Source: Euglena gracilis
Lineage: Eukaryota
Assembly: GCA_039621445.1 (NCBI GenBank)
Contig: CP154954.1
Span: forward strand, 46,975,847 to 47,039,846
DNA: 64,000 nt
Reading direction: 5' to 3'
This document shows, piece after piece, positions 23,217 to 46,180 of the stretch (positions within the stretch are counted from its first letter, which is position 1; every line of letters starts with the position of its first letter). The notes beneath the pieces were generated by a model. It ran no database searches. It worked only from the letters and a program-made list of their open reading frames with translations, and was not told where the DNA came from. The translations under genes and the position numbers were made by a program.

Positions 23217-26168
23217 GTGGAGACATTGCAGCAGCTGCAGAAGCTGGAGGGGCGGCAGCAACACACCGATCCGTGGCCATTGCAACCCCCCCACCCCCCG
23301 CATCAGAGCTTTCAAAATCCCCCTCTCCTCAAGAGAATGGCCATGGAACCGGGACAACTGTGGTCAGGAAGAAAAGAAGACAGAAGGGGGACACCATCAC
23401 ACGTCCAACAGACTCCCCCCCTTTTTCTACATCATCCCCCTTCCAGGGGGCAAAGCAAGGGCTATGGCAGCCTTTCAACAAATATCAGAAAAGGACCTGG
23501 GGTCCAGAATCAAGGCCATGGCGGCCTGCATGCAAGAGGGCAATGGGCCCAGGGGCAAGGCTATGGCAGCCAGCATCCCAGCCTGGAAAGATCCCACTGG
23601 GGAGAGGTATGTCCAACTCTCCCCCCAGTAATTTCAAAAACAAACCCCCCAGGAACAGCAAGGCAATGCCAAATACAGGCCATGGTGGCCTATATGGGGA
23701 ATCCAGAAGGACAGAGAAGAGAAAGTCCTGGAAAGAAGGCCAATGGAGGCCAAGCAGGCCTGAGTTCCACTGGAAGCCAGATGGAGGCAAATGGACAGAG
23801 AAGTCCTGGAGAAAAGGCCAATGGGGGCCAAGCAGGCCTGAGTGCCACTGGAAGCCAGATGGAGGCAAATGGACAGAGAATTCCTGGAGGAAAGGCCAAT
23901 GGCCAAGCAGGCCTGAGTACCTCTGGAGGCCAAAGGGCCCTGAAGGCAAGTGGTGGCCAAAACCATCAAGACCACATCAGCCCTTGGGGGGGAGCACCAA
24001 GATTGGCTCAGGCAGGCCCCCCCCAGAAGATAATCAGCCCAGCTTTATATGTACCACCCCACCACAGACCTTCCCCCATCATTCCAAAACAAGGGGAAAG
24101 CCTGTCTTTGAGAAGCCCTATGGCAGGGCCATCTACAGCCCCAGTGATGGGGCACCCAGAGGGGGCCCCAGTGATGGGGCAGCCCAGGGGAAGGACCCCA
24201 GAGATTGGGCCTGTGGAACCCCCAGATACATTATACCCAGGGGTGCCCCCCTACAAGGCCCTGCAGGCCAGTATCCACCATTGGGTCAAGGCAGGAGCCA
24301 GCAGAGAGGTATTAAACCTGATAAGGGAAGGGGTTATGGCAGATCTCCCCCTCCCCCCTCAGATGTCATTAAACGTTCCCTTCAAGACACCCCAAGAAAT
24401 AATGACTGCCCAAAAAATTCTGAGGGAATACGAATGTGCAGGGGCAACCAGGCAAATCCCCCCAGAGGAGGCAAAACATTTTGTCCCTTATTTCATCATT
24501 TCCAAAAAAGAGGGGGAAAAGACAAAAGAAAGATTAATCTCAGATAGTCGACAGTTAAATCTCCACTTCACCCCCCAGAAGTTCAGACTGGAACACATGG
24601 GAAACATTTTCCCATATTTAAAAAAGGGTTGGTTCTGTGGAAAAATCGATCTGAAAGATGCTTATTTTCACCTAAAGCTGCACAGCAGCCTAGAAAAACA
24701 TGTTTGCATGCAAGTGGGGGGGGGGGAACGTGGCAGTTTCAGGCTGCATGCTTTGGCATCAGCAGCCTGCCACAAAAGTTTATGACTCTCATGAGAGTCT
24801 GGGAAAGGAAGTGGAGAAAGGAGGGAAAGGTGGTTTTCATCTACCTGGACGACATTTTGCTGTTAGCCCCCAGCAAAAAGACAGCAGCCCAACATTTGGC
24901 AGAGATAAAAAGAGACCTTTTGTTGGCAGGTTTCAGATTAAACCTCCCCAAATCCTGTCTGGAACCCACACAGGAAATAAAACATTTGGGCCAGTGGATC
25001 AATCTGAAAAAAGGCCAGTTAGAAATTCCTCAAGAAAAGCTGAAATCCCCCAGAAAGGAGCTAGGCAAGGTGCTCACAGCACAAAAAATGAGATGCAGAA
25101 AACTCAGTTCGATCGTGGGTCAAGTCAGAAGCTATTTAGTCTCAATGCCATTTCTCAGAATTCTGACAGATCAACTTTGCAAAATGGTGGACCTGCACAC
25201 AAAGTGGGGTTGGGACCACACCCTAACCATTCCCCAGGGGGTCAAGGATCAAATTGTGGAATTAAAGGCATTTTTGCAACCAGGGGTTGGCAGGGCATTT
25301 CAATCCCAGGCCACTCAGAATCTCTTTTCAGACAGCAGCACCTGGCAATGGGGGGGGGGGGCTGGACAAGGCTTCAGGCCAAAAGGTGCAGGATTTTTGG
25401 AGGGACCTGCATGTCTTTCATATCAATCAAAAAGAATTGCAAGCTGCAGTGGAAACTGTCAAAGCACTGGCCAAACCAAAACAAACAATTGTGCTTCATG
25501 TGGACAGCCAGGTGGCTGTGAGTTATTTAACAAAATGGGGAGGCAGAAAGCCATATTTAAATTCCATCTTAAGACCCCTGCTGTATCATTGCCAAGAAAA
25601 GCAAATCAACTTGCAGGTGGTTTGGGTTCCCACAAAGGAGCAATTGGCAGACTCCTTGACCAAAGAGCAAAAGCACCCAGGGGATTATACCCTAAACTTG
25701 AACATCTTTCACCAAATTCTTCAATTTTTCAGAAAAGACATATCCCCAGAGGTGGACATGTTTTGTACACCCAGCAACAGAAAATTCCCCAAGTTTGTTT
25801 GTCGATACCCCCACCAAGGGGCTTTGCTGGTGGATGCCTTGAGGGCAGATTTGAAGAGTCTCCCCCCAGTTTATGCCAATCCCCCCTGGAGCATCATTCC
25901 CCAGTGGGTTCAGAGATTGATGCTAAACCCAGACCTGAAATGTCTGTTGATCGTACCCCACTGGGCTTCAACATCGTGGTGGCGCCAATTAATGTCAATC
26001 AGGCAGCCAGGCAGCAAAGTTTTGTTGGTACCCCCCCAATGGGGTCTGTTCACCAACTGCTGGGGGGAAGAGATGCCCCCCCCAAGGTGGAATTTGGCCT
26101 GCTTGATTGTGTCAGGCAAATATTACAATCCCAGGAAGTTTCGATGTCCAGTATCGACACTTACATAA
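23217..26168 (+). pseudogene. DIRS-B RT - RNase H - adenine MTase, frameshifted at G-runs 24716-24726 and 25350-25361
   Basis: ERLISDSR and KIDLKDAYFH in frame 23217; YLDD (24842-24853) and FSDSS in frame 24629; HINQKEL, LADSL, VDMFC and YANPPW (25878-25889) in frame 25287. Confidence 0.9.
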
Positions 26169-26990: not shown

Positions 26991-27532
26991 AAAAATTCAA
27001 ACAATTATGGCCTAAAGGGGGGTGCACAGTACCTCACCATCTCGCAGTGCGGAGCCCGAATGGTCTCGGACTCCCACGACAGAGGAAGGGGGAGGAAGGG
27101 ACCAAGAGGGCGAAGCACAAGAAGATGGTGAGCCCAACCCTCCCACCCCAAAAATCAGCAGAAACGGAAAGATATCCAAACCAGAAAGGGGACCCCCGCC
27201 CAAGCAACCCCAACCACCCACCCAGGAAAACAGAAAAAGACCACCATCCCCATCGAGGGGGGGGCCCCCCACCAAGCGACCATGGGAGAGGGGGGGGGGG
27301 GCGGGGCCACGACGGTTCAGCTTCGCCAAGGTGTCGGACGCGGCCTCATCATCGCCAACTCCGGCAACAAAGGCGCAGTAAGAAGCACCCCCCGCACACG
27401 CACAAACACACCAGAACAGAACAGCCGGCAAGGAAAGCAGGACCTCACCATCTTCTTGTGCTTCGCCCTCTTGGTCCCTTCCTCCCCCTTCCTCTGTCGT
27501 GGGAGTCGGATAGCAGGGCACCAAGGCTCCAC

Positions 27533-29700: not shown

Positions 29701-31656
29701 GGTTCCCAAGCCTCTTGTATGGTGCTAACATGGTGTGGAATTTCCGTCCACTCGCACTCCCCCGAGGCAGACCGAGAGGGGAGGAAGGGACACCGTGACC
29801 GTGGGCGAAACACAAACACCAAGTGAGGTCGGCACCTCACTTGAGGGAAGTGCGGAGCCCGAGGTGTCCAAACCCATGTGCGAGTTAGTCAGTGAAAGGC
29901 GGAGCATATTTACAACGGATCAATGGCTGCCTCAGTCTGCCATTGACTTTGGGTCTAAAGTCACAATGTTGTTCAAAAACGTGAGGAAATCAGACGATCG
30001 TGATCACTCACAATCTCATTCAGAACGTGTGACAATGTCTTTTGAAGCCCCCAAAAGGACACAGGAAGCTTCCCGCGACAAAAATGTACCACAACAGATG
30101 GATTGTATCTCTGCCACGTCAGCCAACGTGATAAACTGCACCAGTACTTCCGCCACAGGTCAATTAAGAACAGCCAACTCCGGCAAAATTGCAGCACCAA
30201 AGGTGCAAAGCCTAACCTTCCCAAAAACATTTACCTTCAAAAAGCCGGCAAAACAAGGCATGAGCTCACTTGGGGGCAGTTCGGAGCCCGAGGGTCAAAA
30301 TTATTTTGGCGGAGGCCGGGGCCCGCTGCGGCCAAACGATCGCAAAAAAAGATTCTATGAGGTTATTCGAGGAGGCTTGGCTTGTGTCAAGGTTCTCGTT
30401 CAAATCAGTTGAACCTTTCCCGCTCAACCGCGCCACATTGGCCTTTAAAGGGCTCCAAGAGACCCCAAAGAGCCGCCCAACTGGGGTAAAAAATACGGCG
30501 GGAGCCGCGCGAACCCCCCCCCTGTTGAAGTCAACTGTAGTCGGGGCCCCGGGGGCCAATGTATTTCGCTATTCTGCGATGAAGTGCGTCTTCAGTCGCT
30601 GGATCTGTTGCGGCTGCGTGGCCCCGGCCGGCGGCGTCCCAACAAGGCAGAATTTAATGACTTCAAAGTCGGACGTGGTTGGGCCGACCGGCCGTGACCC
30701 AACCAACGACCACAACCTCACCTTCCGTGAAAGACCACCCGGCAGAGGGGGACGGGACAGGAAGCACAAAAGCCACCCCACGTGGTGGGCAGGGCGAAAT
30801 TGGAGCTGCGAAAATTGTGGCACAAATCGCCGCGAAAGCAACGGCCTTGACCAACTGGAATACTCGGGCTCCCTCTTCGCGATTTTCTTTTGAAGATCCA
30901 GGCCACCCAACCTTACTTTTCAAGATGAACACCTCCAGGAGGAGAAAGGTGCAAGCCCTACAATTTTGTTTTTCTACATGCGGCACTCAACTCTTCTTCT
31001 GCAAGCCTTGGGGGGGTATACGGCGTGCCTGCGGCCATCCGTTCTGCTAGCCTCACCGATCCCGGAGAAAGGAGTGCCAGACCTGCCGCCTCATGTCGAT
31101 GCAGATGAGCCCTCCTTGGACCAAGCCCCAAAGTTGGCCCAAGGCCCCGCCTTCCCCGCCCGACTCCGCGCACCGCCAAAGCATCCTCACACTCGTTCCC
31201 AGGCAGCTCTCCAATCTAATGTGGCCAATTTTCTGTCAGCCTGAAGTTTGTGCGTTCACATTCCTTACTTGAGGGGTTTCAAATTTGTGTGCGAATGTGT
31301 GCATGCGTGTGTGAGCTTTTTTGTTTGCGTCGGAGATTCTTTTTTGAAAAGATTGGTGACGAGGAGGTGGGGGGTCCGCCCCCCTGAGGGGGTGGAGTGG
31401 GTGGCCCAAAGTTTCCTGTGTTTTTTTTCACCTTTGTTCCTCTATTTTATTTATTCTATTTATGTTTGTTTTGTTTTATTCTATTCTACTTCTACCCCCC
31501 TTTCCCCCCCTTCCCTTCCTTCCCTTCTTCCCCCCTTCTAAACCGACCTACCCTTCCAAACCGACCCATTTCAACTAAAAAAAGAAATAAACCGACCCTT
31601 GGCAAGTTTCGGACTCCCAAGACAGAGGAAGGGGGAGGAAGGGACCACGAGGGCGA

Positions 31657-32253
31657 TGTCGACTGTCGGGGGGCGTCCGACATTCAAAAATGGCAGGGCG
31701 GAAGCTTTTGAAAACACGGAATTTTTCATTCCGCGCAGAACGCGCGTTCTATAGGAAAAGCCTAATTTGAGGTTCCAATTCAGCACAATTTGCTTCCGCA
31801 GACTTGAGTGGGTTTCTTTGTTCCATACAATTGAGAATTGAAGTCCTCAAGAATTATTTCATTGAAGAATTGTCATTTTTGAGAATTTCAAGTTCAAAGG
31901 TCAGGTCCCACCTTTCCTCATTCACGGTGTGCCATTGTTGCTTTCTGACCACCAATTCAGTGAACAAAACACCACCCTTACGCATTCTCGATGTTTTGCA
32001 TGCCGGAAGAAAGGGGGAGTGAAATGGCCTCATGGGGATCAAAGTTTGGAGAAACATTTTCATTGGACCGGAATTTTGATTTTGTACAAGATTTCCACGA
32101 AAAAGCTAATTCGATCCTATGCACCCCCCTCTGGTCGGGGGGTACACCAGTGGGCGAAACGGGGGGTGGCCTGAGCCCTCCACCACCCGGAAAAACACTG
32201 GGCCCTGACCAGGGAACGGCAGCCCAAGGGGTGGGTGACGGGCAGGGATCAGC
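31657..32253 (+). repeat. 5' LTR (its last 45 bp lie inverted at 32349-32393)
   Basis: Colinear with 43075-43672. Confidence 0.92.
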
Positions 32254-32334
32254 AAGATTACTGCTGGTTGTGCCATTAAAATTGTCCATATTTTCTGGGC
32301 TGAAAATTTTTTTGTCAACAGGGTTGGCAAAAAC

Positions 32335-32348
32335 TCCTCTGCGTACCA
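32335..32348 (-). promoter_or_regulatory. Primer binding site TGGTACGCAGAGGA (tRNA-iMet-like), now inverted
   Basis: On the minus strand it directly follows the LTR terminus ...GTAGACA. It resembles TGGTAGCAGAGGA with one extra C. Confidence 0.75.
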
Positions 32349-32677
32349 TGTCTACCCCGGGCGCCCCCCCTGCGGGTGTCGGACCGAAAACCCTGCCCTA
32401 CCAACAGAATCTGTGGGTATTTTGGAAGCTTTGACCCTCAGCTAAACATAGTTAGCAGAGGCAGCTTCACCAGCTCTGTTGGTGAGGAATTTTCGAAATC
32501 GGCAAACCTGAATTCTTCTCAATCTGTGGAAATCAGCAATTTTCAATCACAGTCTGGTTCTGATACGTGTTCAGAAATTTCGAACGCAGACTTTTCAGGT
32601 GGGAACCCAGAAAAGGTGTTTGGAGTTAACATGATAACGGCCAGTCCCCATGAATCACAGGGGGGGATGAAAATCAG

Positions 32678-35600
32678 TTGGTGCAATGGACGGGTTCACC
32701 CCCCCAATATCAAAGCGACAGTGAAATTGACAGTGACAGGGGGTCGGGACTCAGCCAGTTTGAAGAAACAGAAAAACTTTTGGTGGCTGCAGGTTGGATA
32801 CCCCCCAGGTTTCAGATTTTCAGTCCAAATCAGCTTCCAAATTTTGGAGCCGAAATACCCCAGATTGAGGGGGTAACTCCAATTTTATTGTTGGAAGACA
32901 GGGGGCCAGCCAGCCACAATGAAATAACTGTCGATGGACAGACATTTTTTTCGGAATCGACCAGAATGTATTCTGAATCAAAATTTTCTGGGGTGCATTC
33001 TGCAAATCTGGGCTGTGGTGCATCATCATCGGGGGTGTTTAATCTGGCTGCATCAAAAACCCAGGTGGAGGAGGATGAAGAAATGGAACCCCAGCCACCT
33101 GATTTAGGAGTTCAGGTGGGTGGGGCTGACATTTCAGATTGGGACGCATGGGATAATTGGGCCCAGGGGGTGGACTGCCAATTAGCAGAACTGAACCGAA
33201 GTTTAACTCACTGGGAAAGTATTATACCCCCCCAGGTGGTTGTGGAAAATCGGCTGGACAATTTTGAGCGAGAATTGGGTGAAAAAAATTCTCGAGCACA
33301 GGCTGAACTTTTACAGTTTATTCAGCAAAATGTGGAACGGCGAAATACTGAAATTTGCAGCCAGTTTGAACAGCAAAAACAGAAAACTCAGGAGGAAATT
33401 CAGCAGTCAGTCAGCCATTTTATTTCACAGTGCCAGCAAGGGCGGAATGCGGCGGAAAATATTGCCAACTGCCACAAACAACTTTTGTCAATCGAAATTG
33501 AAAGACAGGTTGAAGGAAAATCCCAGATTTTTGAGAAATCTGTGAAGGACTTTTTGGATGGGCAGTTGAGCGAAATATTAAAAAGGGAAAAGGAAATTGA
33601 AGTCACATTTTCAGGTCTTTTTGACCAGGTTTGGAGTTGTTCTCGGGCTGTGGGAGAGAACAAATTGGAGTTGCAAAAAGAAATTTCTGCGCTTCAGAAT
33701 GCAAACCGTGAGCTGTGCTCTGGGGTGAATCGACGATTCACTGAAATTGCTGCTGGGCTGAAAACTGTTGGGGAGGAGTCTAAGACAAATTTTGGGACAC
33801 TAGTAAGTGATATGCAGCAGCGATTTCAGACAGTGAATCAGGAGAGCAAAGCTCTGGGGGACAGATTGACTGGGATCGAGAAATTTCTGGGCAGCCAGGA
33901 GGTGCCTTGGGAAAAAGTTGTTGAAATTATGGGGAAAACAGAAGAAACGATACAAACTCAGGTTCGGAGGGAAATGGCAGCTCAGGTCAGAAAAATGATG
34001 GAAATCATGATGACCCAAATGATGGAGGAAAAAACGAGACAAGTGCAAAAAGAAGAACATTTTGACAAGCTGCGAAATGACATGGAAAATTGTATGAAAC
34101 AGCAGTTTTGTGCGATTTTGGGCAAAATTCAAACAGATTTTTCAAAGGAAAAAAGCCATAGGGAGGTTGTCCAAAATCTGTGCAACAATTTTGAGGCACG
34201 GTTGAAGGCCATTGAAGGGAGGGTGCAACAAGTTTTGACTGAAACGGTTCAGCCCAAGGCATCTACGGTGACACAGCCCAAGCCAGTTTTTAAGGCTAAT
34301 TCTGGTTTTGTTGGAATTAAGGGAGTGAAGCCGGTTCAGCCAATTGAAATCTGGGATCTTAATCTGGGATTGGAAGGGGGCCCAGATTTAGGGGATGGAT
34401 CATTGATGGTGTGCCAGGTGAGTATCAATGCCATAGGGGAGGCATCTGAACGGTCACCAATGCTCACTGTTGCGTCTGCAGCTACACAACACATTTTGCG
34501 AAATGTTGTTGTCCCGAAATTTTCAGGTCATGCAGGTGATTGGCCAAACTTCAAGGATGAGTGGGGGAGATTCATCCGAAAATTCAATCAAGTTTCAGAA
34601 GCTGATAAATTGGGCCTCCTAGAACTTTGTTTGGATGATTTGGGGAAAAAACAGCTGAATTTGCATTTGTATGAACTGGGGGAGTCACTAACTTTTAATG
34701 AAGTGTGGGCCAAGTTGGATGCCTGGCATTCGAGAAATGAAGAGTTTGGGGCCCGAAAAAACTTTCGGGATCTCACATTATGCCATCAAGGGAGGGTTAC
34801 AAGCCGTGATTGGGAAAATTTCAAGGTTGACTTCAAGTTGTGTCGACAGAAAATTAAGGATGCCAGTGAGGGGGATGTGAAAAGATTACTCATCGAAAAA
34901 ATGCCTCCTTTTATTGTGCATTGGATCACCGACGAGGAAGAACGGATCAAAACCAGCCAGCCAACCGTTCGAATGAACTATCCACAACCAACCTCCACAG
35001 CCATTATGGAAAATTTTGTGATGATTTTCGCTGGGAAGAAACCCACAAGAGTCACAAAATTGAGTGAGACGGAATTCGAAATGGTGTTGCCTGATGTGCA
35101 AAGTTGTGAAACACTCAAGAGTTACAATGGGAAAGAATTTAATGATTCCAATGTTTTGGTTCGGGTTCGAGAAAATGAACCAAATTTGACTGTTGAAGAC
35201 ATTTTCCGTCTCGTGACTTCAAAATTGGCACTCAGAGATCGGCAAGACTTAATGCTAAACCCCACCCACAGCCAAACCTCATATAGACGTTCTCGATCGG
35301 TGGGGGCGGAGAGAAAAGGGGGGAAATCCAACATTCGGGAGGGTTCACCTTCAAAGAAACGTTCTTTTTCTGGAAAGCAGGTGACATCTCCGACACCTTC
35401 AACACCCAAGTCCACAGGTTCGGCCTTGCCCAATGCTTCGAATGGTCCTGTTCCCATTTCCACTGAAAGTCAGACCCAAAATCTTACACAAAATGCAGAA
35501 ATTCCAAAATCTGTGCCAAATACCAATGGTGGAGTTTGGGTTCAAGCACCACCAAGATCGTCTCCGTGGCCAACTTGGCAACCCCAAAATCAAAACCAAA

Positions 35601-37024
35601 ACTCTTGGAAAGGCCAAAGTTTCAAGGGTGCTCAAAATTATCAAGACCAAGGACGATATGGGGGAAGGGGGCCCAGCCAATCGAATGGAAATTGGAATCA
35701 ACAATCTTCCCAAAAAGGAAAGGTCAAAGGCAAAGGCCAAGGGAAAGATTCTTCCAAAGGCAACGGTTGGAAGGGAGGGGGGTACAACGCAAACCGAAAT
35801 GTTGCACCCCCAGTCCGTCTTTGGGGACGCCGGGGTCATGTTTTTGAGGGGTTTACATCCTCGGGAATCAAAAACCCCCACAATATTTTGCATAACCCAA
35901 CCACATCTCCATGTGGAGAATGTTACCATGTTGGAGAATGTGTGTCTTTATCTTCCAATCCCTCTATCTCAGGCTCAAAGTCAACCAATCAAGAGTTTGC
36001 CATGCCGAAGGCAGGCAATGGTGCAACTGAAGACAATTCAACGAGTTCATCATCAACAATCGCCTCAAGAAGGCAAGTGGCCTCGATCCAATGGCAGCCC
36101 GTGTCGAGGAAGGGCAAGCCGGGCAAACCGTGGACTCGACCCAAACCGTGGACCAGGTGTGCAAGCCAGGATAGTGCACGGCCCAGTTTCAACAATTATT
36201 ATGGTTGTTTGAGTAGACGAGGATCCATCAAAGGTGTTGGAAGTAGGAGAATTCCCAAGGCGTTGGATTTGTTTTCGGGAAAAGGATCTGTGGGGAGGTG
36301 TTTGGAGGAAAACGGATACCAGGTGGTATCTTTGGATGTCAACCCAAAATTTCACCCAACCCATGTAACGGATATTTTGGAGTGGGATTATCGCAAATAC
36401 CCCCAGGGATATTTTGAAGTTATTGCGGCCGGTGTGCCATGCACGGAGTATAGCCTTGCAAAAACGATAGGGGGTAGGGACATGCAAACGGCAGATTGCC
36501 TTGTCGAAAAAACTTTGGAGATCGTGGAATATTTTCAACCCAAATTGTGGTGGATTGAAAATCTCCGTACGGGATATTTACCCAAACGGCAATGTGTTCG
36601 AAATTTGAATTTCATTGATGCTGATTATTGCCAATTTTCTGATTGGGGATACCAAAAACCAACCCGTATTTGGGGGAGTGAGAATCTCTTAAGTTTGAAG
36701 GACAAAGTTTGTGATGGAAAAACCTGCCCCAACATGGTGTTGAAGGAGGGGAGCAGGTGGGCACACAAGGAGCAATTGGGTGGGAGGCATATGCACACGA
36801 GCACACATCAAAAATGGAGAATGCCTCAAAATTTGATTGAATATCTTCTTTCGGCCCTTGGTTTTAAGGAGGAGAAATTTTCCTTCAAAAAGGAGGACTA
36901 TGCCGTGAGAAACTCTTTTGTGAAATTGATTGAGGAGAAATTTCAAAGGAGACCCGAAATGGATTGTCAAAAATTCTCAATGTGCATCTTTTTTGACGAA
37001 GGAAGAAAATGCCTTGAGCGTTGA
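32678..37024 (+). CDS. Gag-like coiled-coil protein fused in frame to a C5-cytosine DNA methyltransferase (1448-aa open frame; native start lost)
   Basis: Coiled-coil region; Gag-like VPKFSGHAGDWPNFKDEW; C-terminal LDLFSGKG, GVPC, WIENL, YQKPTRIW. Confidence 0.85.
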   Translation: MVQWTGSPPQYQSDSEIDSDRGSGLSQFEETEKLLVAAGWIPPRFQIFSPNQLPNFGAEIPQIEGVTPILLLEDRGPASHNEITVDGQTFFSESTRMYSESKFSGVHSANLGCGASSSGVFNLAASKTQVEEDEEMEPQPPDLGVQVGGADISDWDAWDNWAQGVDCQLAELNRSLTHWESIIPPQVVVENRLDNFERELGEKNSRAQAELLQFIQQNVERRNTEICSQFEQQKQKTQEEIQQSVSHFISQCQQGRNAAENIANCHKQLLSIEIERQVEGKSQIFEKSVKDFLDGQLSEILKREKEIEVTFSGLFDQVWSCSRAVGENKLELQKEISALQNANRELCSGVNRRFTEIAAGLKTVGEESKTNFGTLVSDMQQRFQTVNQESKALGDRLTGIEKFLGSQEVPWEKVVEIMGKTEETIQTQVRREMAAQVRKMMEIMMTQMMEEKTRQVQKEEHFDKLRNDMENCMKQQFCAILGKIQTDFSKEKSHREVVQNLCNNFEARLKAIEGRVQQVLTETVQPKASTVTQPKPVFKANSGFVGIKGVKPVQPIEIWDLNLGLEGGPDLGDGSLMVCQVSINAIGEASERSPMLTVASAATQHILRNVVVPKFSGHAGDWPNFKDEWGRFIRKFNQVSEADKLGLLELCLDDLGKKQLNLHLYELGESLTFNEVWAKLDAWHSRNEEFGARKNFRDLTLCHQGRVTSRDWENFKVDFKLCRQKIKDASEGDVKRLLIEKMPPFIVHWITDEEERIKTSQPTVRMNYPQPTSTAIMENFVMIFAGKKPTRVTKLSETEFEMVLPDVQSCETLKSYNGKEFNDSNVLVRVRENEPNLTVEDIFRLVTSKLALRDRQDLMLNPTHSQTSYRRSRSVGAERKGGKSNIREGSPSKKRSFSGKQVTSPTPSTPKSTGSALPNASNGPVPISTESQTQNLTQNAEIPKSVPNTNGGVWVQAPPRSSPWPTWQPQNQNQNSWKGQSFKGAQNYQDQGRYGGRGPSQSNGNWNQQSSQKGKVKGKGQGKDSSKGNGWKGGGYNANRNVAPPVRLWGRRGHVFEGFTSSGIKNPHNILHNPTTSPCGECYHVGECVSLSSNPSISGSKSTNQEFAMPKAGNGATEDNSTSSSSTIASRRQVASIQWQPVSRKGKPGKPWTRPKPWTRCASQDSARPSFNNYYGCLSRRGSIKGVGSRRIPKALDLFSGKGSVGRCLEENGYQVVSLDVNPKFHPTHVTDILEWDYRKYPQGYFEVIAAGVPCTEYSLAKTIGGRDMQTADCLVEKTLEIVEYFQPKLWWIENLRTGYLPKRQCVRNLNFIDADYCQFSDWGYQKPTRIWGSENLLSLKDKVCDGKTCPNMVLKEGSRWAHKEQLGGRHMHTSTHQKWRMPQNLIEYLLSALGFKEEKFSFKKEDYAVRNSFVKLIEEKFQRRPEMDCQKFSMCIFFDEGRKCLER
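36251..36855 (+). other. C5-cytosine DNA methyltransferase domain
   Basis: Motif I LDLFSGKG (36263-36286), motif IV catalytic PC (36437-36442), motif VI EN(L) (36557-36565), motif VIII-like QKPTRIW, motif X-like RMPQNLIEYLL. Confidence 0.9.
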
Positions 37025-37265
37025 TTGCGGGAAGGGGGGCACGGTGTGGTTGAACCCCCCATGGTCGTTATGGCATAAGGTGGCAAAAAAGTTGCAAAAA
37101 ACCCCGTGTGATGCAATTTACATTGTTTCCGATTGGCAAAGGGGATGGGTGAGAGAACTTGTGCGAAAGGCGACACAAAAATTGTATTTTTAGCCTGGAA
37201 CAAAGCTTTTTGAAGTGGATGGGAAACCCATGGGAGGTGTGAAGTGGGGAGTTTGAGCCTTGTTG
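36893..37265 (+). pseudogene. N6-adenine (Dam/DIRS-type) methyltransferase domain, disrupted
   Basis: EDYAV...PEMDC / frameshift ~36965 / KNSQCASF...NALSVD...VWLNPPW (37053-37064)...IYIVSDW. Stops at 37191 and 37254. Same frame as the downstream pol. Confidence 0.8.
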
Positions 37266-40200
37266 ATAGAGGGTGATAAGCCCCCCGCTAGCACTAACAC
37301 GTCTAAGGAACCAAAGGTTGTGCGTTTGAAGTCGCGTATGGTGAAGAAAATGTACTCACCCACAGGGGTGAGCAAATTTTCAAAGGATCGGCAACTTTTG
37401 ATTCACACAAAGGTAATTTTGGTCAATGGGGAGGAACGGGATATGGATATTGTGGTGGATACGGGAGCGGAAGCAAACCTCATAAGGCAAGGATTTGTAA
37501 GCGATCACCTAATGCACTCGGCTGAAAATCCCCTTAAGTTCGAAACGGCCAATGGCCAAGTTTTAAGTGGGGGGACAAGGTGCACTAAGGTGAGAATGAA
37601 GCTGCTTGGGGAGGAGAATAATGGGACACCACCCGAATGCTTTGAGTATGAAGTGGAATTTTACGAAGCAAACATAAAAGTGGATGCCATTTTGTCATTC
37701 CCATGGCTTGCCCAAGCAAAATTTGCAGTTTTTCCACATCATCGAGCTTTGGTTTTGGAAACCCCCGAGCTCACATTTTTGTTTGGTGTGCGTGATTTCA
37801 GAAAACGGCGTCATTCAAACACTTCCAAAATTTTGCCCCAAGAGGGGGACACGGCCCATTTGCACAAATTCGGTTTCCAACTACCTTTGAGTGGGTTTGA
37901 TCAAAGAAGTCGCTTTTTGGATGACCGAACCCTGAAATTTTTGCACAAAAATTTGAGCGTGTCCGAAGCAACCCCCCAACCCATCCGACGGATGATAATT
38001 GCAAGGGAGGGGGGGGGTGCAAATAATGAAGAGGAGGAAGATGAGGATGAAGGCAAGTTAAGGCTATTAAGGGAGGAAATTGAACAAAAGTATGAAGGAA
38101 CTTTTTTTAGGTCAACGGTATACCCGGACCCACCCGTAAGGGGACCCTATGGGTATGCTTTTATACCTTTGAAGGAAGGAGCAACACCAACTCGACAAAA
38201 ACCATTCTTTATGCAAGGGGAACGAAAAGAAGCTTTGGAAAAAATCACTCAAGATTGGATCAATATGAAATTCATCGAGCCAGCCACAACAAAAAATTCA
38301 GAATGGCTCTCACAAACTTTCCCCGTGCCCAAAAAGTCTCCCTATTTTCCTTGGTGGGGGGTTGTTGACATGAGGGGACCCAATAGCCAATCCCGTACGT
38401 GCAACTACCCTCTTCCGAAAACCGAAGATATCCTGGTGAAGCCTGGTGGCAACCAAATGTTCTCCATTTTGGACTTAAAACAAGCATTCCACCAACAACC
38501 GCTTCACCCGGATAGCCGGCCAATAACTTGCTTCTTCACACCAAAGGGTCTCTACCAATGGAGGGTCAATGTAATGGGGTTAACTAATGCCTCACAACAG
38601 TTTCAACAAACGATGGACAAGAGGCTAGCACCCGTAAGGGACATAGCAACCCCATACATAGATGATATTTTGGTGGGGACAACCGTTGGGGAGGGGGAAG
38701 ACCTCCTAGAGGCACACAAACGAGATTTGTGCCGAGTTTTGGATTTGTTGGCCAAAGAATTTTTTGTGGTGGACCCCAAAAAGGCAAAATTGTTCATTAA
38801 GGAAGTGGAATTTTGTGGCCAAATTTTGGGTCATGGTGCCCGATGGCCAGCACCGGGCAAACTTCGTGCCATTGAAAAATGGGAGGTTCCCACAACCATA
38901 ACAGCATTAAGAGCTTTCCTTGGTTTTACCAACTACTACAACGCATACATCCATATGTATACTCAAATTGCCGCATCGTTGCAAGACAAATTGAAGGTGA
39001 ATAGGGATGTTGGTAAAAAAGGAAGCAAAAAAAGAGTTGAATTTGGGGAGGGGGATCTCCAAGCGTTTGGGGAGTTGAAGAAACGTTTGTGTTCGGGCTT
39101 AATCCTACAACGTGTAGACCCCGATAAACCCTTTGTATTAAGGGTTTATGCAAGTGGGTACGCCGTGGGGGCCACACTAGAACAACTAAAGGAAGGAAAT
39201 GGTAAGCCCACACCCCAAGATGTGATGGATAAGAAAACGGTGCCTATTGCCTTCATGTCCCGAAAACTTACCGTGGGGCAAAGGAAATGGACCCCCCGGG
39301 AGTTGGAGACTTATGCCATAATTTTGGCTCTCCAAAATGGGAAAGTTGGATCGGTCTTCAACCCGTTTTGGTGTTTACCGACCACCAAAGTTTGGAGGCA
39401 TGGTCAAAAGAGGTGCTCGATACCCCAAGTGGTCCGGTGGGTAGGAGGGCACGATGGGACCAGATTTTTTCAAATATGATTTGACGGTGGGGTACATACC
39501 GGGTAAAGAAAATACAATTGCCGACATTTTGAGTTGGTGGGCTTACCCGGCCTCACAAGCATTAAGGGACGTAAGCAAACACGGTTCAGCCGAGGATAAG
39601 GAAGAAATGGAGGAACTCATAAGAAAGGAAAGGGAAGACGAAAGAAATTGTTTGTGGATTAGAGTGAAAAATCAGCCCAACAACCGTAACACGTGGATTA
39701 GAGGGGTGATAACCCGTAGCGGGAAATTGGTGGCACCAAAAGATTCTATGGATAGCATGCAAGAGAAGGGAACCGAGGGTGTAGTAAATCCGGGAGGCAT
39801 AGACACCACCGTTGACACACACCTATAAGGGCCCAGGTCAAAGGGGAAAAAGGACAAAAAGTTGAGAGTCACTTTTTGGGATGGAATGGACCCCGCGGGT
39901 AATTTGGTGACCAACCCGAAACTTTCATCCAATGAGTTGCCGAGGGGGTGAACGGGAGGAGGTGTGGCCACGCCAACTCCAAGTTTAACCCCTGAGGGAA
40001 CAAAATCGGTTTGGGAGCAAGATTGGGTGGTTGCATACACTTTGTGTCCCACGTGGAAAAAGATTTGGCAAGCAACGCAAGAAAATGGTGAGTGGCCAAA
40101 GGGGGTGAAAAAAAAGTCCACAAAAACCAAATGTTTCGAGAGGAGAAGTTGTGCATTCCACTAAGTTTTCAAGAAATGATCATCCTTGAAAACCACAAAT

Positions 40201-41470
40201 TTCTTGGACACGTTGGTCCGGAAAAGGTGTGGAGGCACGTCAATTTGAGGTATGCATGGGCTGATGAAAAGAAGGCGAAAGTTTTCATCGACAGTTGTAG
40301 CAAAAATTGCACAACATGTCAAGCGAGCTCGAGGGGGGAGACATTGAAAGGACCCATTGACTCAACACCCATACCACCCGCACCCATGGTAAGTGTGGCT
40401 ATCGATCTTTTCAAAATGCCGAAGGTGTTGTACGAGGGGGGGAGTACAACACAATGGCTGTTTGCGTGGACCGACATTCCGGTTGGATTGTAGCCATACC
40501 GTGTTTTGATAAGGGATTAACGGGTGCAAAATTGGCCAAGGAAATGCTTAAAGCCCAATAGAAACCCTTTGGAGTCCCGTCAATAATTTCAAGTGACCAA
40601 GGGAGCCATTTTGTCAACACATGGTGGCAAACCATGTGTTCGCTCATGGGAATTCGGCAAGCAGTTTCCCAAGCTTACCACCACCAAGCAAATGGGAGGG
40701 TGGAGAGAGCCGGCCAACAAACCATGGAAATCCTCCGAAAGTTGTTTGTGGAGGAAAAAATGAATTGGGTGGAAGCACTTCCCCAAGTTTTGGATCGCAT
40801 TCATGACACCAAGGGGGAGAGTGGTTTTAGTCCTTACGAAATTTTGTTTGGAAGGGATAGACCCATTGGGGGAATACCCTATCAAACACCAAAGGAGTGT
40901 GAGGACGCTCAAAGTTTTTTTTGTCGAATAAAGGAGGTGGATGAGAAGGTTGCTAAGGTTCTCAACCACGCACATTGGGTTCAAGCGAGTTGGGTCAACC
41001 AAGGGAGGAGGGAGTTGGTACCCTTAAAATTGGGAACCCAAGTGTGGTATAGGAGACCCGAAGGATCCGGAGAAAAATTGCATTCCAGATGGATTGGATC
41101 TGGGATTATTAAAGCCCGGGAGGGGGAGAGGAGTTACATTATTGAACTTAAACACGGGATGGAAATGAAGGTTCATCGTAGTTTCCTTAAGGAGTACAAA
41201 GAGCCTGAAGTTTTTGGTGAGGGGGTGCCTTTGTTCTTTTTCAAGAGGACCGAAAAAGAAGAGGAAGCAATGCCTGATGAGTGGGAAGTTGAAAAAATTC
41301 TGAACCACCGAAAGAAGGGGGGAACCTGGGAGTTCCTCACGAAATGGGTTGGTTACAACGAGGGGGAGGAAACCTGGGAACCGGTGGGGAATTTCATACA
41401 CCGATTTAGTGAAGAGTTGGTGAGGTATTGCACGAAGAAAAACCTAGGGGTCGATTTGATGTCGAATTGA
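37260..41470 (+). pseudogene. pol: Gypsy pol: aspartic protease, RT, RNase H, integrase, chromodomain (several frameshifts and stops)
   Basis: VDTGA (DTG 37458-37466); LDLKQAFHQ, YIDD (38655-38666); LRAFLGFTNYY; RNase H VYAS (D>Y at 39147), ELETYAI, FTDHQ, IADILS; H-x4-H...C-x2-C, IDLF, SDQG, NGRVER; chromodomain WEVEKILNHR...KWVGY...TWEP. Confidence 0.95.
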
Positions 41471-43063
41471 AGAAATCTTTGAAACCCTAGTGAGCCGAAA
41501 GTTGAAGGCTCGGTCCATTTTGCTTTTTTTTTTGGATCGGGGAGCCCAAATGTTCGAGGCTCTTGCTTTGAATCGGGCCAAGTGCTGTTTCGGCGAGTTG
41601 TTTGTGTGCTTGTGCATTGCTTATGTGCATCATACCTTTTGTTTTTGACTCCATGATTCTCATATGTTTTGATTTTTCAAGCATGTGATGAATTTGATTT
41701 CTCTCTCTCTTTCTCTCTCTCCTTCTCTCTCCATGCATATTTTGTGCTTGCTCCTCTCTTTCGCTTTGCTCTCACAGGTTTTGAGGACTTGGAGGCTCCA
41801 AGCACGCCCAAGGGATCCCAAGGGAAAAGTGTGAGCACATCACCGCAGGAAGGAGGCGAGCACCCTACGCAAGCAAGGAGGCGAGACAAGGAGACGAGAC
41901 GAGGAGATGACACGAGGAGATGAAGCCTTTTTACCCAACCAACCGAATACACCATGGCACAACTTGTCCATACTCCCAAACTTGTCCGTAGCCCAGCCCC
42001 GTTGGGGCTTTCCTCTTTATAAACGGCCCCAGCACACGCTACCCGAACCCCGAGCCCCACTGCCTATCTTCCTCACCCCAACCTGACCTCACCTTCCCAT
42101 ACCGTGAATGGAAAGGGGGACCGAAGGATTTGGATTTTTTTCCTCAATGTCGAGCCATAGCCCCTGTAGGAGAGCGGCCCAAAATGTATGGAGCTTTGAT
42201 GACTTGTTTGGATCCCGAGTCATTGGTGAATGTTTCAAGGGGGAAGAAGCCTCACCTTCTCCATGGATGCCCGGGGGGGGAGCTGAATTTCTCCGATTTT
42301 TGGGTGAGCTCCCTCCAAACGTGTTTCGGTCGAGGGGGGGGGGCGCCCATTCCCATGCCCGTGTCCAAAGGATTGTGGAATGGAGACAGCCTGATTTTTC
42401 AGTTGATGTATGATACACCACGCGACGACCCCGTGAATGGTTATTTTTTAAGTGAATTTCACCGGATTTCGTTCATGGAGGGTTGGTTACATTTCGGATG
42501 TCCACCAAGATTGTGTGGTGCAAGAGAACGTCCAATCCAAGAATTCGAGTTTTTTGGTGAGCCATGAGAAAGTAAGACACAAGCACCGGGGGGGGGGGCT
42601 GTCCGAACTCTCCCCAAGCGGTCACGCCGAATGTTCGGGGGGGGCAAAATTTTCCCTCCAACATTTTCCCTCCGGGGTAAAAAAAGTCAGAACTCTCCCC
42701 ACAATTTTTTTGATCGGGGGGGGCGCTAGCCCAGTTTTCATTTATATTTTAAATGACATTCACAGAGTTCGTGGCAATTTTTTTCCTTGGCATTTTTTCA
42801 TGCCCCCAACCTGTGCGGGGGGGGGGGGGGCGCTTGGATTTTCAAGGGGGACGTTTTCGCATTTTTTGTGGAGCCGCTAAGTGGTGCCGTGTGCCTTGTT
42901 TTTGTGGCAAGGTAACACTAAGCGAGGGGCATAGGCGTTTCATCATTCTCTTTCTCAAGAAATTGTGAAGGATTCTCATTTGCATTCGTTTCATTCTGAT
43001 TTTTTTCCATGTGTTCGCTTTTTTATTCAATTTTCACTTTTTTGAGGGTCCGACTAATGTTGC

Positions 43064-43074
43064 AAGGGAGGGGG
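43064..43074 (+). promoter_or_regulatory. Polypurine tract AAGGGAGGGGG
   Basis: Immediately precedes the TG of the 3' LTR. Confidence 0.85.
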
Positions 43075-43731
43075 TGTCGACTGTCGGGCGGCGTCCGACA
43101 GTCAAAAATGGCAGGGCGGAAACTTTTGAAAACACGGAATTTTTCATTCCGCGCAGAACGTGCGTTCTATAGGAAAAGCCTAATTTGAGGTTCCAATTCA
43201 GCACAATTTGCTTCCGCAGACTTGAGTGGGTTTCTTTGTTCCATACAATTGAGAATTGAAGTCCTCAAGAATTATTTCATTGCAGAATTGTCACTTTTTG
43301 AGAATTTCAAGTTCAAAGGTCAGGTCCCACCTTTCCTCATTAACGGTGTGTCGTTGTTGCTTTCTGACCACCAATTCAGTGAACAAAACACCACCCTTAC
43401 CCATTCTCAATGTTTTGCATGCCGGAAGAAAGGGGGTGTAAAATGGCCTCATGGGGATCAAAGTTTGGAGAAACATTTTCATTGGACCAGATTTTTGATT
43501 TTGTACAAGATTTCCACGAAAAAGCTAATTCGATCCTACGCATCCCCCTCTGGTCGGGGGGTACACCAGTGGGCGAAACGGGGGGTGGCCTGAGCCCTCC
43601 ACCACCCGGAAAAACACTGGGCCCTGGCCAGGGAACGGCAGCCCCAGGGGTGGGTGACGGGCAGGGATCAGCCGGCCAGCGGGCTGGGGTTTTCGGTCCG
43701 ACACCCGCAGGGGGGGCGCCCGGGGTAGACA
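43075..43731 (+). repeat. 3' LTR (657 bp)
   Basis: TGTCGAC...GTAGACA followed by TSD GCGA. Confidence 0.93.
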
Positions 43732-44858
43732 GCGAAGCACAAGAAGATGGTGAGGTCCTGCTTTCCTTTCCGGCTGTTCTGTTCTGGTGTGTTTGTGTGT
43801 GCACGGGGGGTGCTTCTTACTGCGCCTTTGTTGCCGGAGTTGGCGATGATGAGGCCTCTTCCGACACCTTGGCGAAGCTGAAGCGTCGTGGCCCCGCCCC
43901 CCCCCCCCTCCCACCCATGTTTGCTTGGTGCCCCCCCCACCCCCTCGATGGGGATTGTTGTCTCTTTCTGGTGTGTTTCTGGGTGGGTGGTTGGGGCTGC
44001 TTGGTTGGGGGTCTCCCTTCCGGTTGGGATGTTTTTCTTTTTCTGCTGATTTGTTGGGTGGGGGGGTTGGGCTCACCATCTTCTTGTGCTTCGCCCTCTT
44101 GGTCCCTTCCTCCCCCTTCCTCTGTCGTGGGAGTCCGAGACCATTCGGGCTCCGCACTGCGAGATGGTGAGGTACTGTGCACCCCCCTTTGGGCCATAAT
44201 ATTTTTAATTTTTGAAAGGACACCGAGTCGTAAATAATGAGCTTGGAAGGCCCCAAAATTTTTCCACTGACCCAATTGCTGGACTTCTTCCACTTGCAAA
44301 CCAGCATTTTTCCACCATAAAACCTCAGCTCCTCTGGTGCTGTGGGGTTTCCAGTGGGTGGTGTCCACCCCCCCCCTCTTGCAGAATTTCTTTGGTCAGG
44401 GAATTCACTCTTTCTGCTGTCAAAGGTCTTTTTCCATCCAAAGACCATAACAAATTATTTTTGTGCCCAATCATGTGGGCTGTCCTTTCCACATACTCTT
44501 TCAATAAATGCCAGGGGCTTATGAGGGGGGGGGGGTGGCAAAATCAAAACTTCCTCCCATCTGGGGAATTGCCACCCTTTCCTTTGCAATAAAACGAAAA
44601 TTTTTTCTCCCACGAAACTGATTTTCCGCTGTGTCCTGGCTAAATCAACCCCCCTGTGGAGGGCCAACGGCCTCCAACAGATGATGAGTCTGTTTCTGAG
44701 CTCTTTCACAGATAGGTCAGAGAGGGGTTTGGATTTCCTGATGATGTTTTTTAAGAAATGAGTGGGGTTCCAAAAATGGGCATACTTGCAGGCATTGGAA
44801 TTCCATTTCCTTTTCAATGGAGACAAAAGAGGGGAAAACCTCAATGACCCAAACCCTT

Positions 44859-46180
44859 TTTTAATTTTGCCACACAACCCCCTCATAAGCCCCTGGCATT
44901 TATTGAAAGAGTATGTGGAAAGGACAGCCCACATGATTGGGCACAAAAATAATTTGTTATGTTCTTTGGATGGAAAAAGACCTTTGACAGCAGAAAGAGT
45001 GAATTCCCTTACCAGAGAAATTCTGCAAGAGGGGGGGGGGTGGACACCACCCACTGGAAACCCCACAGCACCAGAGGAGCTGGGGTTTTATGGTGGAAAA
45101 ATGCTGGTTTGCAAGTGGAAGAAGTCCAGCAATTGGGTCAGTGGAAAAATTTTGGGGCCTTCCAAGCTCATTATTTACGACTCGGTGTCCTTTCAAAAAT
45201 TAAAAATATTATGGCCCAAAGGGGGGTGCACAGTACCTCACCATCTCGCAGTGCGGAGCCCGAATGGTCTCGGACTCCCACGACAGAGGAAGGGGGAGGA
45301 AGGGACCAAGAGGGCGAAGCACAAGAAGATGGTGAGCCCAACCCCCCACCCAAAAAATCAGCAGAAAAAGAAAAACGTCCCAACCGGAAGGGAGACCCCC
45401 AACCAAGCAGCCCCAACCACCCACCCAGAAACACACCAGAAAGAGACAACAATCCCCATCGAGGGGGGGGGGGGGACCACCAAGCAAACATGGGTGGGAG
45501 GGGGGGGGGGCGGGGCCACGACGCTTCAGCTTCGCCAAGGTGTCGGAAGAGGCCTCATCATCGCCAACTCCGGCAACAAAGGCGCAGTAAGAAGCACCCC
45601 CCGTGCACACACAAACACACCAGAACAGAACAGCCGGAAAGGAAAGCAGGACCTCACCATCTTCTTGTGCTTCGCTGTCTACCCCGGGCGCCCCCCCTGC
45701 GGGTGTCGGACCGAAAACCCCAGCCCGCTGGCCGGCTGATCCCTGCCCGTCACCCACCCCTGGGGCTGCCGCTCCCTGGCCAGGGCCCAGTGTTTTTCCG
45801 GGTGGTGGAGGGCTCAGGCCACCCCCCGTTTCGCCCACTGGTGTACCCCCCGACCCGAGGGGGGTGCATAGGATCGAATTAGCTTTTTCGTGGAAATCTT
45901 GTACAAAATCAAAATTCCGGTCCAATGAAAATTTTTCTCCAAACTTTGATCCCCATGAGGCCATTTCACTCCCCCTTTCTTCCGGCATGCAAAACATTGA
46001 GAATGGGTAAGGGTGGTGTTTTGTTCACTGAATTGGTGGTCAGAAAGCAACAATGACACACCGTTAATGAGGAAAGGTGGGACCTGACCTTTGAACTTGA
46101 AATTCTCAAAAATGACAATTCTGCAATGAAATAATTCTTGAGGACTTCAATTCTCAATTGTATGGAACAAAGAAACCCAC
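44859..46180. repeat. Inverted duplicate (~1.32 kb) of 43226-44549 (LTR part + DIRS right end + YR fragment)
   Basis: Reverse-complement colinearity that includes the LTR/TSD junction; ~310-bp spacer. Confidence 0.92.

Follow-up and report, generated by a model that had tools for sequence, protein, structure and literature searches.

A dead copy of a probable EpiLTR-type Ty3/Gypsy retrotransposon with a C5 cytosine and a Dam/PCIF1-like methyltransferase domain in pol

The 64-kb stretch of DNA whose first lines are given above, here called the window, harbours at positions 31657-43670 what is in all probability (about four chances in five) a dead copy of a high-copy, chromodomain-bearing retrotransposon of the Ty3/Gypsy type with long terminal repeats (LTRs), of the kind named EpiLTR. 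Its pol region begins with a minimal C5 cytosine methyltransferase (C5-MTase) of ~200 amino acids, followed by a Dam/PCIF1-like N6-adenine methyltransferase (DAM) of ~130 amino acids, both located before the protease (PR). Analysis with Pfam, and with tblastn against the intact relative P0010, showed that the order between the LTRs is a gag-like open reading frame (ORF), C5-MTase, DAM, PR, reverse transcriptase (RT), RNase H (RH), integrase (IN) and chromodomain (CHD), all on the + strand. An EpiLTR has been defined as an LTR element with a DAM, a DNA methyltransferase (DNMT) and a chromodomain, and was described in Cymbomonas tetramitiformis and Euglena gracilis (Fernandez-Moreno et al., bioRxiv 10.64898/2026.05.21.726589, 22 May 2026; cited here from part of its text). 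In the window all three domains are found between one LTR pair. An earlier note, made from the letters of this stretch alone, knew of no LTR element carrying both methyltransferases. The basic design has been reported in the 2026 preprint, so this claim to novelty no longer stands, and the value of the present analysis is in corroboration and added angles, not in first discovery. Two of these angles, the viral stand-alone relatives of the C5-MTase and PCIF1/CAPAM as the nearest fold of the DAM domain, go beyond the consulted parts of the preprint.

The element measures ~12.0 kb including its LTRs. The earlier note had given it a span of 32678-41470, which proved too short. A direct repeat was found with blastn (31649-32253 versus 43068-43672, 96.5% identity over 606 nt), and alignment and motif searches placed within it LTRs of 595 bp that begin with TGTCGAC and end with GGATCA, showing TG...CA ends. 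The 5' LTR is located at 31657-32251, with the repeat match extending to 32253, and the 3' LTR at 43075-43670. A polypurine tract, AAGGGAGGGGG (43064-43074), abuts the 3' LTR, and a candidate primer-binding site, TGGTTGTGCCATT (32265-32277), is suggested by its sequence.

A single open frame of 1,456 codons runs from 32654 to 37024. Roughly its first 1,190 codons are gag-like by position, after which the C5-MTase follows; the gag frame thus runs unbroken into this domain, as had been described. The C5-MTase (36254-36862) displays motif I (LDLFSGKG), motif IV (GVPCTEYS), motif VI (IENL, with ENP in relatives) and motif VIII (QKPTR), together with a short, Cys-rich target-recognition part. The motif numbering is the one that we take to apply to this enzyme class: I (FxGxG), IV (PC), VI (ENV-type Glu) and VIII (R). 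When the domain alone was scanned, PF00145 was matched with 29.2 bits (cut-off 22; E 8e-7), while Pfam did not report PF00145 when the entire 1,456-residue frame was scanned. The domain also matched the phage DNA methyltransferase families phrog_363 (E 1.3e-12) and phrog_757 (E 6.8e-9). A phmmer search against PDB sequences returned DNMT1 only, at E 0.055 or worse. An AlphaFold (AF2) model based on a 30-row alignment had a pLDDT of 89.6 and a pTM of 0.83. In a Foldseek search of the PDB with this model, the catalytic domains of DNMT3A/3B ranked first (E 7e-10, TMq 0.5-0.58), DNMT1 and DIM2 came next, and 321 chains were found at E ≤ 0.001.

The motif residues of this domain were counted in 105 relatives, 46 of them borne by retroelements and 59 stand-alone. 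The motif IV Cys and the motif VI Glu were each present in 46/46 and 59/59 of these proteins. The Lys and Thr of motif VIII were found in 105/105 and its Arg in 103/105 (44/46 in the retroelement relatives), while three Cys residues of the target-recognition part are kept in 103-105 of the 105. The copy in the window holds all of these residues. Its three Cys (DYC and C-x4-C, ~36630-36740) lie in a very short target-recognition part, and the pattern suggests that they may form a small metal-binding site. Profile matches, conserved motifs and the modelled structure indicate that the C5-MTase domain is genuine and has a DNMT fold, and methyl transfer to DNA is predicted.

The DAM domain (36884-37270) directly follows the C5-MTase and was delimited by PF05869, by tblastn with P0010, by alignment and by the fold of the corresponding domain of a relative. 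The fragment 36930-37193, which contains the NPPW motif, matched the Dam profile PF05869 with 35.6 bits (cut-off 28.1), so that both methyltransferase domains passed the profile searches that had been proposed for them. Comparison with P0010 (tblastn) showed that the domain is split: its N-terminal part, up to ~36968, is in the frame of gag and C5-MTase, and the rest is in the PR-RT frame. A frameshift near 36968 breaks it, as do two stops in frame (TAG, 37191-37193; TGA, 37254-37256). The earlier description, an NPPW methyltransferase after the C5-MTase with its C-terminal part in the PR-RT frame, was right in its outline and had omitted the two stops.

Downstream, the domains of an LTR retrotransposon follow in an order (PR-RT-RH-IN) that is collinear with P0010 by both Pfam and tblastn. 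The aspartic protease with its DTGA motif (37422-37598) matched gag-asp_proteas at E 3e-4 with 21.6 bits, below the cut-off of 28.2, and could be aligned to the protease of P0010. The Pfam-matched stretch of the reverse transcriptase is located at 38421-38825 (RVT_1, E 2.6e-18) and the RNase H at 39054-39338 (RT_RNaseH_2, E 1.9e-16). The integrase consists of an H2C2 zinc-binding domain at 40155-40328 (PF17921, E 8e-7) and a catalytic core at 40409-40681 (rve, E 2.7e-5, 24.8 bits, below the cut-off of 32.6), and the stretch 40409-41455 shows 70% identity to P0010 (tblastn). The integrase does end in a chromodomain, as had been noted (41282-41404; PF00385, E 3e-9, 37.1 bits, cut-off 25.1). Its aromatic cage positions, which we placed by presumed correspondence to HP1, read W, W and Y in the sequence. 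The tblastn frame map revealed four frameshifts between RH and IN: near 39335 and 39470, after the RNase H, at 40110-40150, before the zinc-binding domain, and at 40409-40439, splitting the catalytic core. The copy is dead, because it has five frameshifts and two in-frame stops in addition to a private change in its C5-MTase. An identity as a DIRS element was considered and rejected: the repeats are direct, rve and Integrase_H2C2 are present, and Pfam found no tyrosine recombinase in the frames of the element.

Protein homology searches placed this copy in a diversified clade. Of 550 candidates in the search seeded with the methyltransferase block, 34 proteins of 800-2548 amino acids scored E ≤ 1e-3, and the top ones matched at E 1.5e-108 to 2.6e-93 with 59-63% identity. 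Seeding with PR-RT-RH yielded 46 proteins of 1296-3700 amino acids at E ≤ 1e-30 among 4,838 candidates; 28 of these form a clade at 39-68% identity to the element, and the rest are ordinary Gypsy elements of algae, plants, fungi and animals at ≤34%. The next RT matches outside the clade are chromodomain elements of algae and plants with ≤30% identity, and no database protein exceeded 68% identity to the element. A C5-MTase is carried by 21 of the 28 clade members; the other seven cannot be judged on this point since they start inside DAM (P0190, P0191) or ≤133 amino acids from PR. The closest named relative is EukProt EG_transcript_113 (P0190), an intact ORF of 1,540 amino acids with the order DAM-PR-RT-RH-IN-CHD and 68% identity over PR-RT-RH; names of the EG_transcript style occur in papers on E. 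gracilis.

Domains were mapped on 67 proteins by means of segments of P0010. The C5-MTase was found in 44 of them, DAM in 22 and both in 20. The claim that both methyltransferases and a chromodomain belong to one polyprotein was borne out by seven relatives with all three in one intact ORF (P0008, P0009, P0010, P0021, P0036, P0201 and P0202), three of which (P0008-P0010) have the window's order. The order C5MT-DAM-PR-RT-RH-IN-CHD is common to seven proteins (P0007-P0011, P0032 and P0197). Intact polyproteins with the domain order of the window have 1,763-1,911 amino acids and 59-68% identity to the element, and these ORFs remain open across 49-75% identity. The 20 proteins with both methyltransferases fall into six arrangements: C5MT-DAM-PR-RT (seven proteins), DAM-C5MT-(PR)-RT (five), PR-DAM-C5MT-RT and C5MT-PR-DAM-RT (three each), and PR-C5MT-DAM-RT and PR-C5MT-RT-RH-DAM (one each). 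Further placements are seen in forms with only the C5-MTase, including RT-RH-IN-C5MT in P0216 and P0221, whose RT has 28-31% identity to that of the element. These comparisons indicate that the two methyltransferase modules are mobile within pol.

Per-domain identity was used as a measure of constraint in place of dN/dS. Among the seven polyproteins with the same order, mean pairwise identity was 59% for C5MT, 49% for DAM, 50% for PR, 77% for both RT and RH, 64% for IN and 68% for CHD, compared to 27-44% for the linkers. The values for the methyltransferases are near that of the protease and above those of the linkers, which argues for a constraint on both domains comparable to that on the protease. 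A metagenome scan returned no relative with the same order (C5MT-DAM-PR); it yielded four retroelement loci lacking DAM, whose 37-56% identity makes them too diverged for an estimate of synonymous rates. The sequence comparisons show the methyltransferase modules to be integral and conserved in a diversified clade.

Parts of the element were also recovered from twenty sequencing runs. Fourteen of these, DNA or unclassed runs of one organism, contained 42-44% of the words sampled from the element. Four runs (X1, X9, X15 and X20) were aligned to 32200-43100 at 90% likeness, giving 6,867, 751, 310 and 53 contig pieces on the element, respectively; the element family is very abundant. Among the positions listed, every covering contig reads another letter at the second in-frame stop, TGA (n = 25, 10, 5 and 1 across the four runs), and part of the contigs carry an indel at the four RH-IN frameshift sites. 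Since other copies differ at these sites, the breaks are private to the copy in the window or to a subset of copies. Contigs of all four runs cover the methyltransferase block continuously with its neighbours; a piece from X15 spans 36862-37227 and one from X20 spans 36256-36742 with 10 differences in 487. Run X20 is a leaf-litter metatranscriptome and 4 of its 53 pieces match at ≥99%. This hints at transcription, but DNA carry-over is possible, so that it proves neither transcription nor habitat; that runs X15-X19 are RNA is no more than a guess. A contig of X15 joins 36121 to 41775 with 5 other letters in between, skipping everything from the C5-MTase through the chromodomain. In X15 the gag-like part and the 3' region are covered ~5-20 times as deeply as pol, while in the DNA runs the coverage is even. 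The 36121-41775 joint probably represents an abundant non-autonomous derivative.

The C5-MTase belongs to a family that extends well beyond retroelements. It comprises 2,760 cluster representatives at E ≤ 1e-3 (204 of these at E ≤ 1e-30), with numerous complete proteins of ~200 amino acids among them. The metagenome scan produced 79 loci with C5-MTase relatives, and the tree set derived from it has 59 stand-alone rows of ~170-280 amino acids. Seven long contigs with stand-alone C5-MTases were listed, with 28-35% G+C. The first eight neighbouring ORFs tested comprised one protein-primed type-B DNA polymerase (E 3e-52), three PIF1/UvrD-type helicases and four without a family. Ten further neighbours included one double-jelly-roll capsid N-domain, one family-B polymerase, one D5-type primase, one dynamin, one weak WD40 repeat match below the cut-off, and five with nothing. 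Of 467 pattern matches in IMG/VR, 405 code for a relative; among the 80 contigs that were kept, four bear the name GVMAG, and the median G+C is 0.34. The C5-MTase module is thus one that retroelements have in common with eukaryotic double-stranded DNA (dsDNA) viruses. Loci L028, L032, L035, L036, L089, L096 and L137 carry stand-alone C5-MTases of ~200 amino acids, mostly on AT-rich, virus-like contigs with 27-44% G+C; the genes adjoining them include those for protein-primed PolB, SF1 helicase, D5 primase, double-jelly-roll capsid and family-B polymerase. A quick tree placed 45 of 47 retroelement C5-MTases on one side of a branch with 99% support, and P0216 and P0221 with the viral genes. A separate capture of the 3'-end C5-MTase of these two proteins was considered and found to be unsupported, a tree with all 47 retroelement rows together being the likelier one (p-AU 0.956). 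One origin of all retroelement C5-MTases is therefore not rejected by these sequences, which agrees with the preprint, where the DNMTs of the Cymbomonas and Euglena EpiLTRs were found to be monophyletic (Fernandez-Moreno et al. 2026).

The gag-like frame (32654-36253) is composed of a coiled-coil part, a putative capsid part and a basic tail rich in Q, N and G, and is continuous with the C5-MTase frame. No credible Pfam family was found for it, and a homologue search returned 0 of 5,357 candidates of 800-2548 amino acids at E ≤ 1e-5. A language-model search (ESM Atlas) gave a lead to PNMA/Retrotrans_gag at 0.85, below the trust level of 0.9. The earlier note had proposed an ancestral polyprotein running from Gag to the chromodomain in a single ORF. 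This was not upheld, as the called ORFs of P0007-P0011, the five closest relatives that bear the block, begin 0-166 amino acids before the C5-MTase. No similarity was detected between the upstream frame of the window and the leaders of the relatives' pol ORFs; likeness starts at 36227-36254. A second frame is open for 275 codons (35385-36212) and overlaps the gag-like frame just before the C5-MTase; this could stem from base composition or mark a place where two frames once joined.

Several observations weigh against the reading of 31657-43670 as an EpiLTR-type element. The candidate primer-binding site, which starts with TGG, begins 13 nt past the 5' LTR. A target-site duplication of 4-6 bp was looked for at the element ends and none was found (GGCGA before, GCCGG after); its loss by rearrangement is possible, since an inverted duplication includes the 3' flank. 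The identity of the gag is positional and unproven as far as the sequence goes. The PF00145 match covers profile positions 31-113 of 324, about a quarter of the profile. In motif VI the window copy has L where 105/105 relatives have P (ENP); this private change makes the copy's own enzyme uninformative on function. DAM domains expressed in Escherichia coli gave no gain of N6-methyladenine (6mA) in DNA, and a hybrid substrate was raised by the authors (Fernandez-Moreno et al. 2026). Methyltransferase domains of the DIRS1 type have furthermore been judged inactive (Iyer, Zhang and Aravind 2016, PMC4738411; cited here in part).

The label of a 6mA writer, which the earlier note had given to the DAM domain, is not supported by the structural data, and "6mA type" is at present a hypothesis. 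A fold model was built for the DAM domain of the intact relative P0010 and displayed the Rossmann fold of an N6-adenine methyltransferase (best model pLDDT 87.9). Foldseek found three chains only at E ≤ 0.001, all of PCIF1/CAPAM (6irw_B first, E 5.6e-5, TMq 0.62), with E. coli Dam at rank 41. A VIA-align scan of 48,161 chains likewise put CAPAM first (6irx_A, Z 10.7, root-mean-square deviation 3.4, 129/140 residues), ahead of ErmE (Z 9.2), T4 Dam (8.8) and E. coli Dam (8.7). In both searches the nearest solved fold is thus PCIF1/CAPAM, a writer of N6,2'-O-dimethyladenosine (m6Am) at the RNA cap, and not a DNA adenine methyltransferase. It is accordingly a real if minority possibility that the domain is no DNA 6mA writer and that, being PCIF1/CAPAM-like, it would act on, or merely bind, the RNA of the element, with cap-adjacent m6Am, internal N6-methyladenosine (m6A) or an RNA:DNA intermediate as candidates; each element would then combine one writer of a DNA mark with one writer of an RNA mark or an RNA binder. 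Weak PCIF1_WW hits, in one of six DAM segments (E 0.056) and in both DIRS-like neighbours of the element, point the same way. So do the assignment of DIRS1 polyprotein methyltransferases to the PCIF1 clade, for which an interaction with the template transcript was proposed (Iyer et al. 2016), and the E. coli result, since an enzyme acting on RNA or a hybrid would explain the absence of 6mA there. Sequence profiles, however, favour Dam: PF05869 matches 6/6 DAM segments, the best with 51 bits, and the domain matches phrog_111, a DNA methyltransferase family. The Z gap between CAPAM and the DNA Dam enzymes is smaller than 2, DAM-LTR insertions were reported to carry more 6mA than other LTRs (Fernandez-Moreno et al. 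2026), and the fold model is based on a 6-row alignment, with the other four models at pLDDT 57-79. A profile of the DAM alignment had 0 matches among PDB sequences at E ≤ 1.

Two further explanations are less likely. It is improbable that both domains are passengers in decay, or pseudo-enzymes with a structural or regulatory function, lacking a catalytic role in the family. The window copy itself, with its motif VI substitution and broken DAM frame, would fit such a view, as would the inactive DIRS1 methyltransferases and the negative E. coli assay cited above, but the catalytic motifs, which the earlier note had wished to see checked across the family, are kept in the relatives. The catalytic Cys and Glu and the Lys and Thr of motif VIII are conserved in 46/46 retroelement relatives, with the Arg in 44/46, and NPP[W/F/Y] is present in 21/22 DAM-bearing relatives, the exception being N-terminally truncated. 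In conservation both domains moreover exceed the linkers and match or surpass the protease, and the polyprotein ORFs have stayed open over the divergence given above. Less credible still is that the block is particular to this locus, through secondary insertion, nesting of another element or chimeric assembly. The locus is rearranged, with no target-site duplication and with an inverted duplication beside the 3' LTR, and the preprint cautions on nested insertions and assembly artefacts in Euglena (Fernandez-Moreno et al. 2026). Seven proteins from other contigs, however, have C5MT-DAM-PR-RT in one ORF, which contradicts a secondary insertion; the contigs of four other runs span the block with its neighbours, and the pol homology of the relatives begins exactly at the C5-MTase.

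On the reading of the element as an EpiLTR-type retrotransposon with two methyltransferases, a working copy would be expected to release both enzymes through its protease, inside the particle or in the nucleus. Cytosines would then be methylated by the C5 enzyme, either in newly made cDNA or in and around the integrated copy, and the adenine enzyme would mark DNA with 6mA, or act on the element's own RNA or on an RNA:DNA intermediate. The integrase chromodomain may tether integration to methyl-lysine chromatin. Together these activities could fit the element into a host genome that uses both 5-methylcytosine (5mC) and 6mA. A more specific proposal, at this stage rather doubtful, is that the family carries a virus-derived minimal C5 DNA methyltransferase and a PCIF1-like adenine methyltransferase that acts on the capped RNA of the element or on an RNA:DNA intermediate, and not on duplex DNA. 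If true, a retrotransposon would be editing its epigenome and its epitranscriptome alike. DNA methylation is commonly regarded as something done to transposons, a picture inverted by elements with their own C5 and adenine methyltransferases and a reader of histone marks. The locus and its relatives show a design that is old, conserved and widespread among environmental eukaryotes, the two enzymes occupying at least six different places in pol. The minimal C5-MTases form a large family that giant and polinton-like viruses share, which connects the gene pools of retroelements and DNA viruses.

The 3' region of the element (41471-43063) comprises 1.6 kb between the stop of the chromodomain and the polypurine tract and is kept in the deletion derivative; its two ORFs (191 and 142 amino acids) matched no Pfam family. 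An inverted duplication of 1.3 kb (43226-44500 versus 44907-46180, 98% identity) takes in the outer portion of the 3' LTR together with the flank and yields a third LTR copy, partial and inverted, at 45735-46180. At each of the two other LTR copies a 45-nt piece of the 5' leader (32349-32393) recurs in reverse, 15 nt past the end of the LTR (43687-43731 and 45676-45720), and three runs have contigs with this joint of LTR end and reversed leader. Right before the 5' LTR lies a 50-nt motif (31606-31656) with four more copies in the window, at 27063-27113, 27463-27507, 44091-44141 and 45267-45317. The motif is part of a different repeat family, in which 43732-44500 resembles 27466-26705 at 91%, so that the element lies within older repeats. 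Two DIRS-like units nearby (19260-21476 and 24548-26168) have RT, RNase H and a weak Dam-like domain with PF05869 at 18-19 bits, below the cut-off, and faint PCIF1_WW in both; their Dam part has just 24% identity to that of the Gypsy element. Across the window the CpG observed/expected ratio is 0.55, with an excess of TG (1.16) and CA (1.25), which is consistent with long-term CpG methylation of a repeat-rich region. Neither a tRNA (ARAGORN) nor an Rfam family was found in the whole 64 kb, and the other long ORFs of the window have retroelement domains or no Pfam family.

DAM-carrying LTR elements have been described in several lineages (Fernandez-Moreno et al. 2026). The EpiLTRs of E. gracilis, the genome of which is heavily methylated (5mC) with near-default CG methylation, are the closest known systems, sharing DAM, DNMT and chromodomain with the element of the window. 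They are likened by domain content, the consulted main text of the preprint giving no domain order for Euglena beyond calling its configuration "structurally distinct". The preprint also gives a mixed DIRS/LTR picture, to which the DIRS-like DAM elements adjoining the element fit. The CpG ratio of the window and the very large copy number of the family likewise agree with its account of Euglena, and a euglenid host is likely. If the host is E. gracilis, the element family is probably among those counted in the preprint and hence already known. The Cymbomonas EpiLTR likewise has DAM, DNMT and chromodomain in a chromovirus-like element, but its DNMT is located at the 3' end of pol, whereas the C5-MTase is the first pol domain in the window. 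C5 DNA methyltransferases were found earlier in LINE and DIRS elements of Symbiodinium and in charophyte retrotransposons, and Dam-like methyltransferases in DIRS elements; de novo CG methylation by retrotransposon DNMTs was shown in the same study (De Mendoza et al. 2018, PMC5890265; cited here in part). SymbioLINE-Dnmt, SymbioDIRS-Dnmt3 and the streptophyte Gypsy-DNMT3 resemble the element of the window in having such an enzyme in a retrotransposon coding region. They differ in class (LINE, DIRS) and in DNMT lineage (Dnmt3 or orphan), and no second methyltransferase and no chromodomain are reported for them in the consulted parts of that study. DIRS1 elements also have a small N6-adenine methyltransferase inside a retroelement polyprotein (Iyer et al. 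2016), and the PCIF1-like fold was found independently here. In contrast to DIRS1 elements, the element of the window has a DDE integrase with a chromodomain, direct LTRs and no tyrosine recombinase, and NPPW is intact across its relatives whereas the DIRS1 copies were judged inactive. The stand-alone C5-MTases of dsDNA viruses share with that of the element 35-48% identity across the whole domain, the same motifs and the same short, Cys-rich target-recognition part, but each is a gene by itself on an AT-rich contig, with no fusion to a retroelement.

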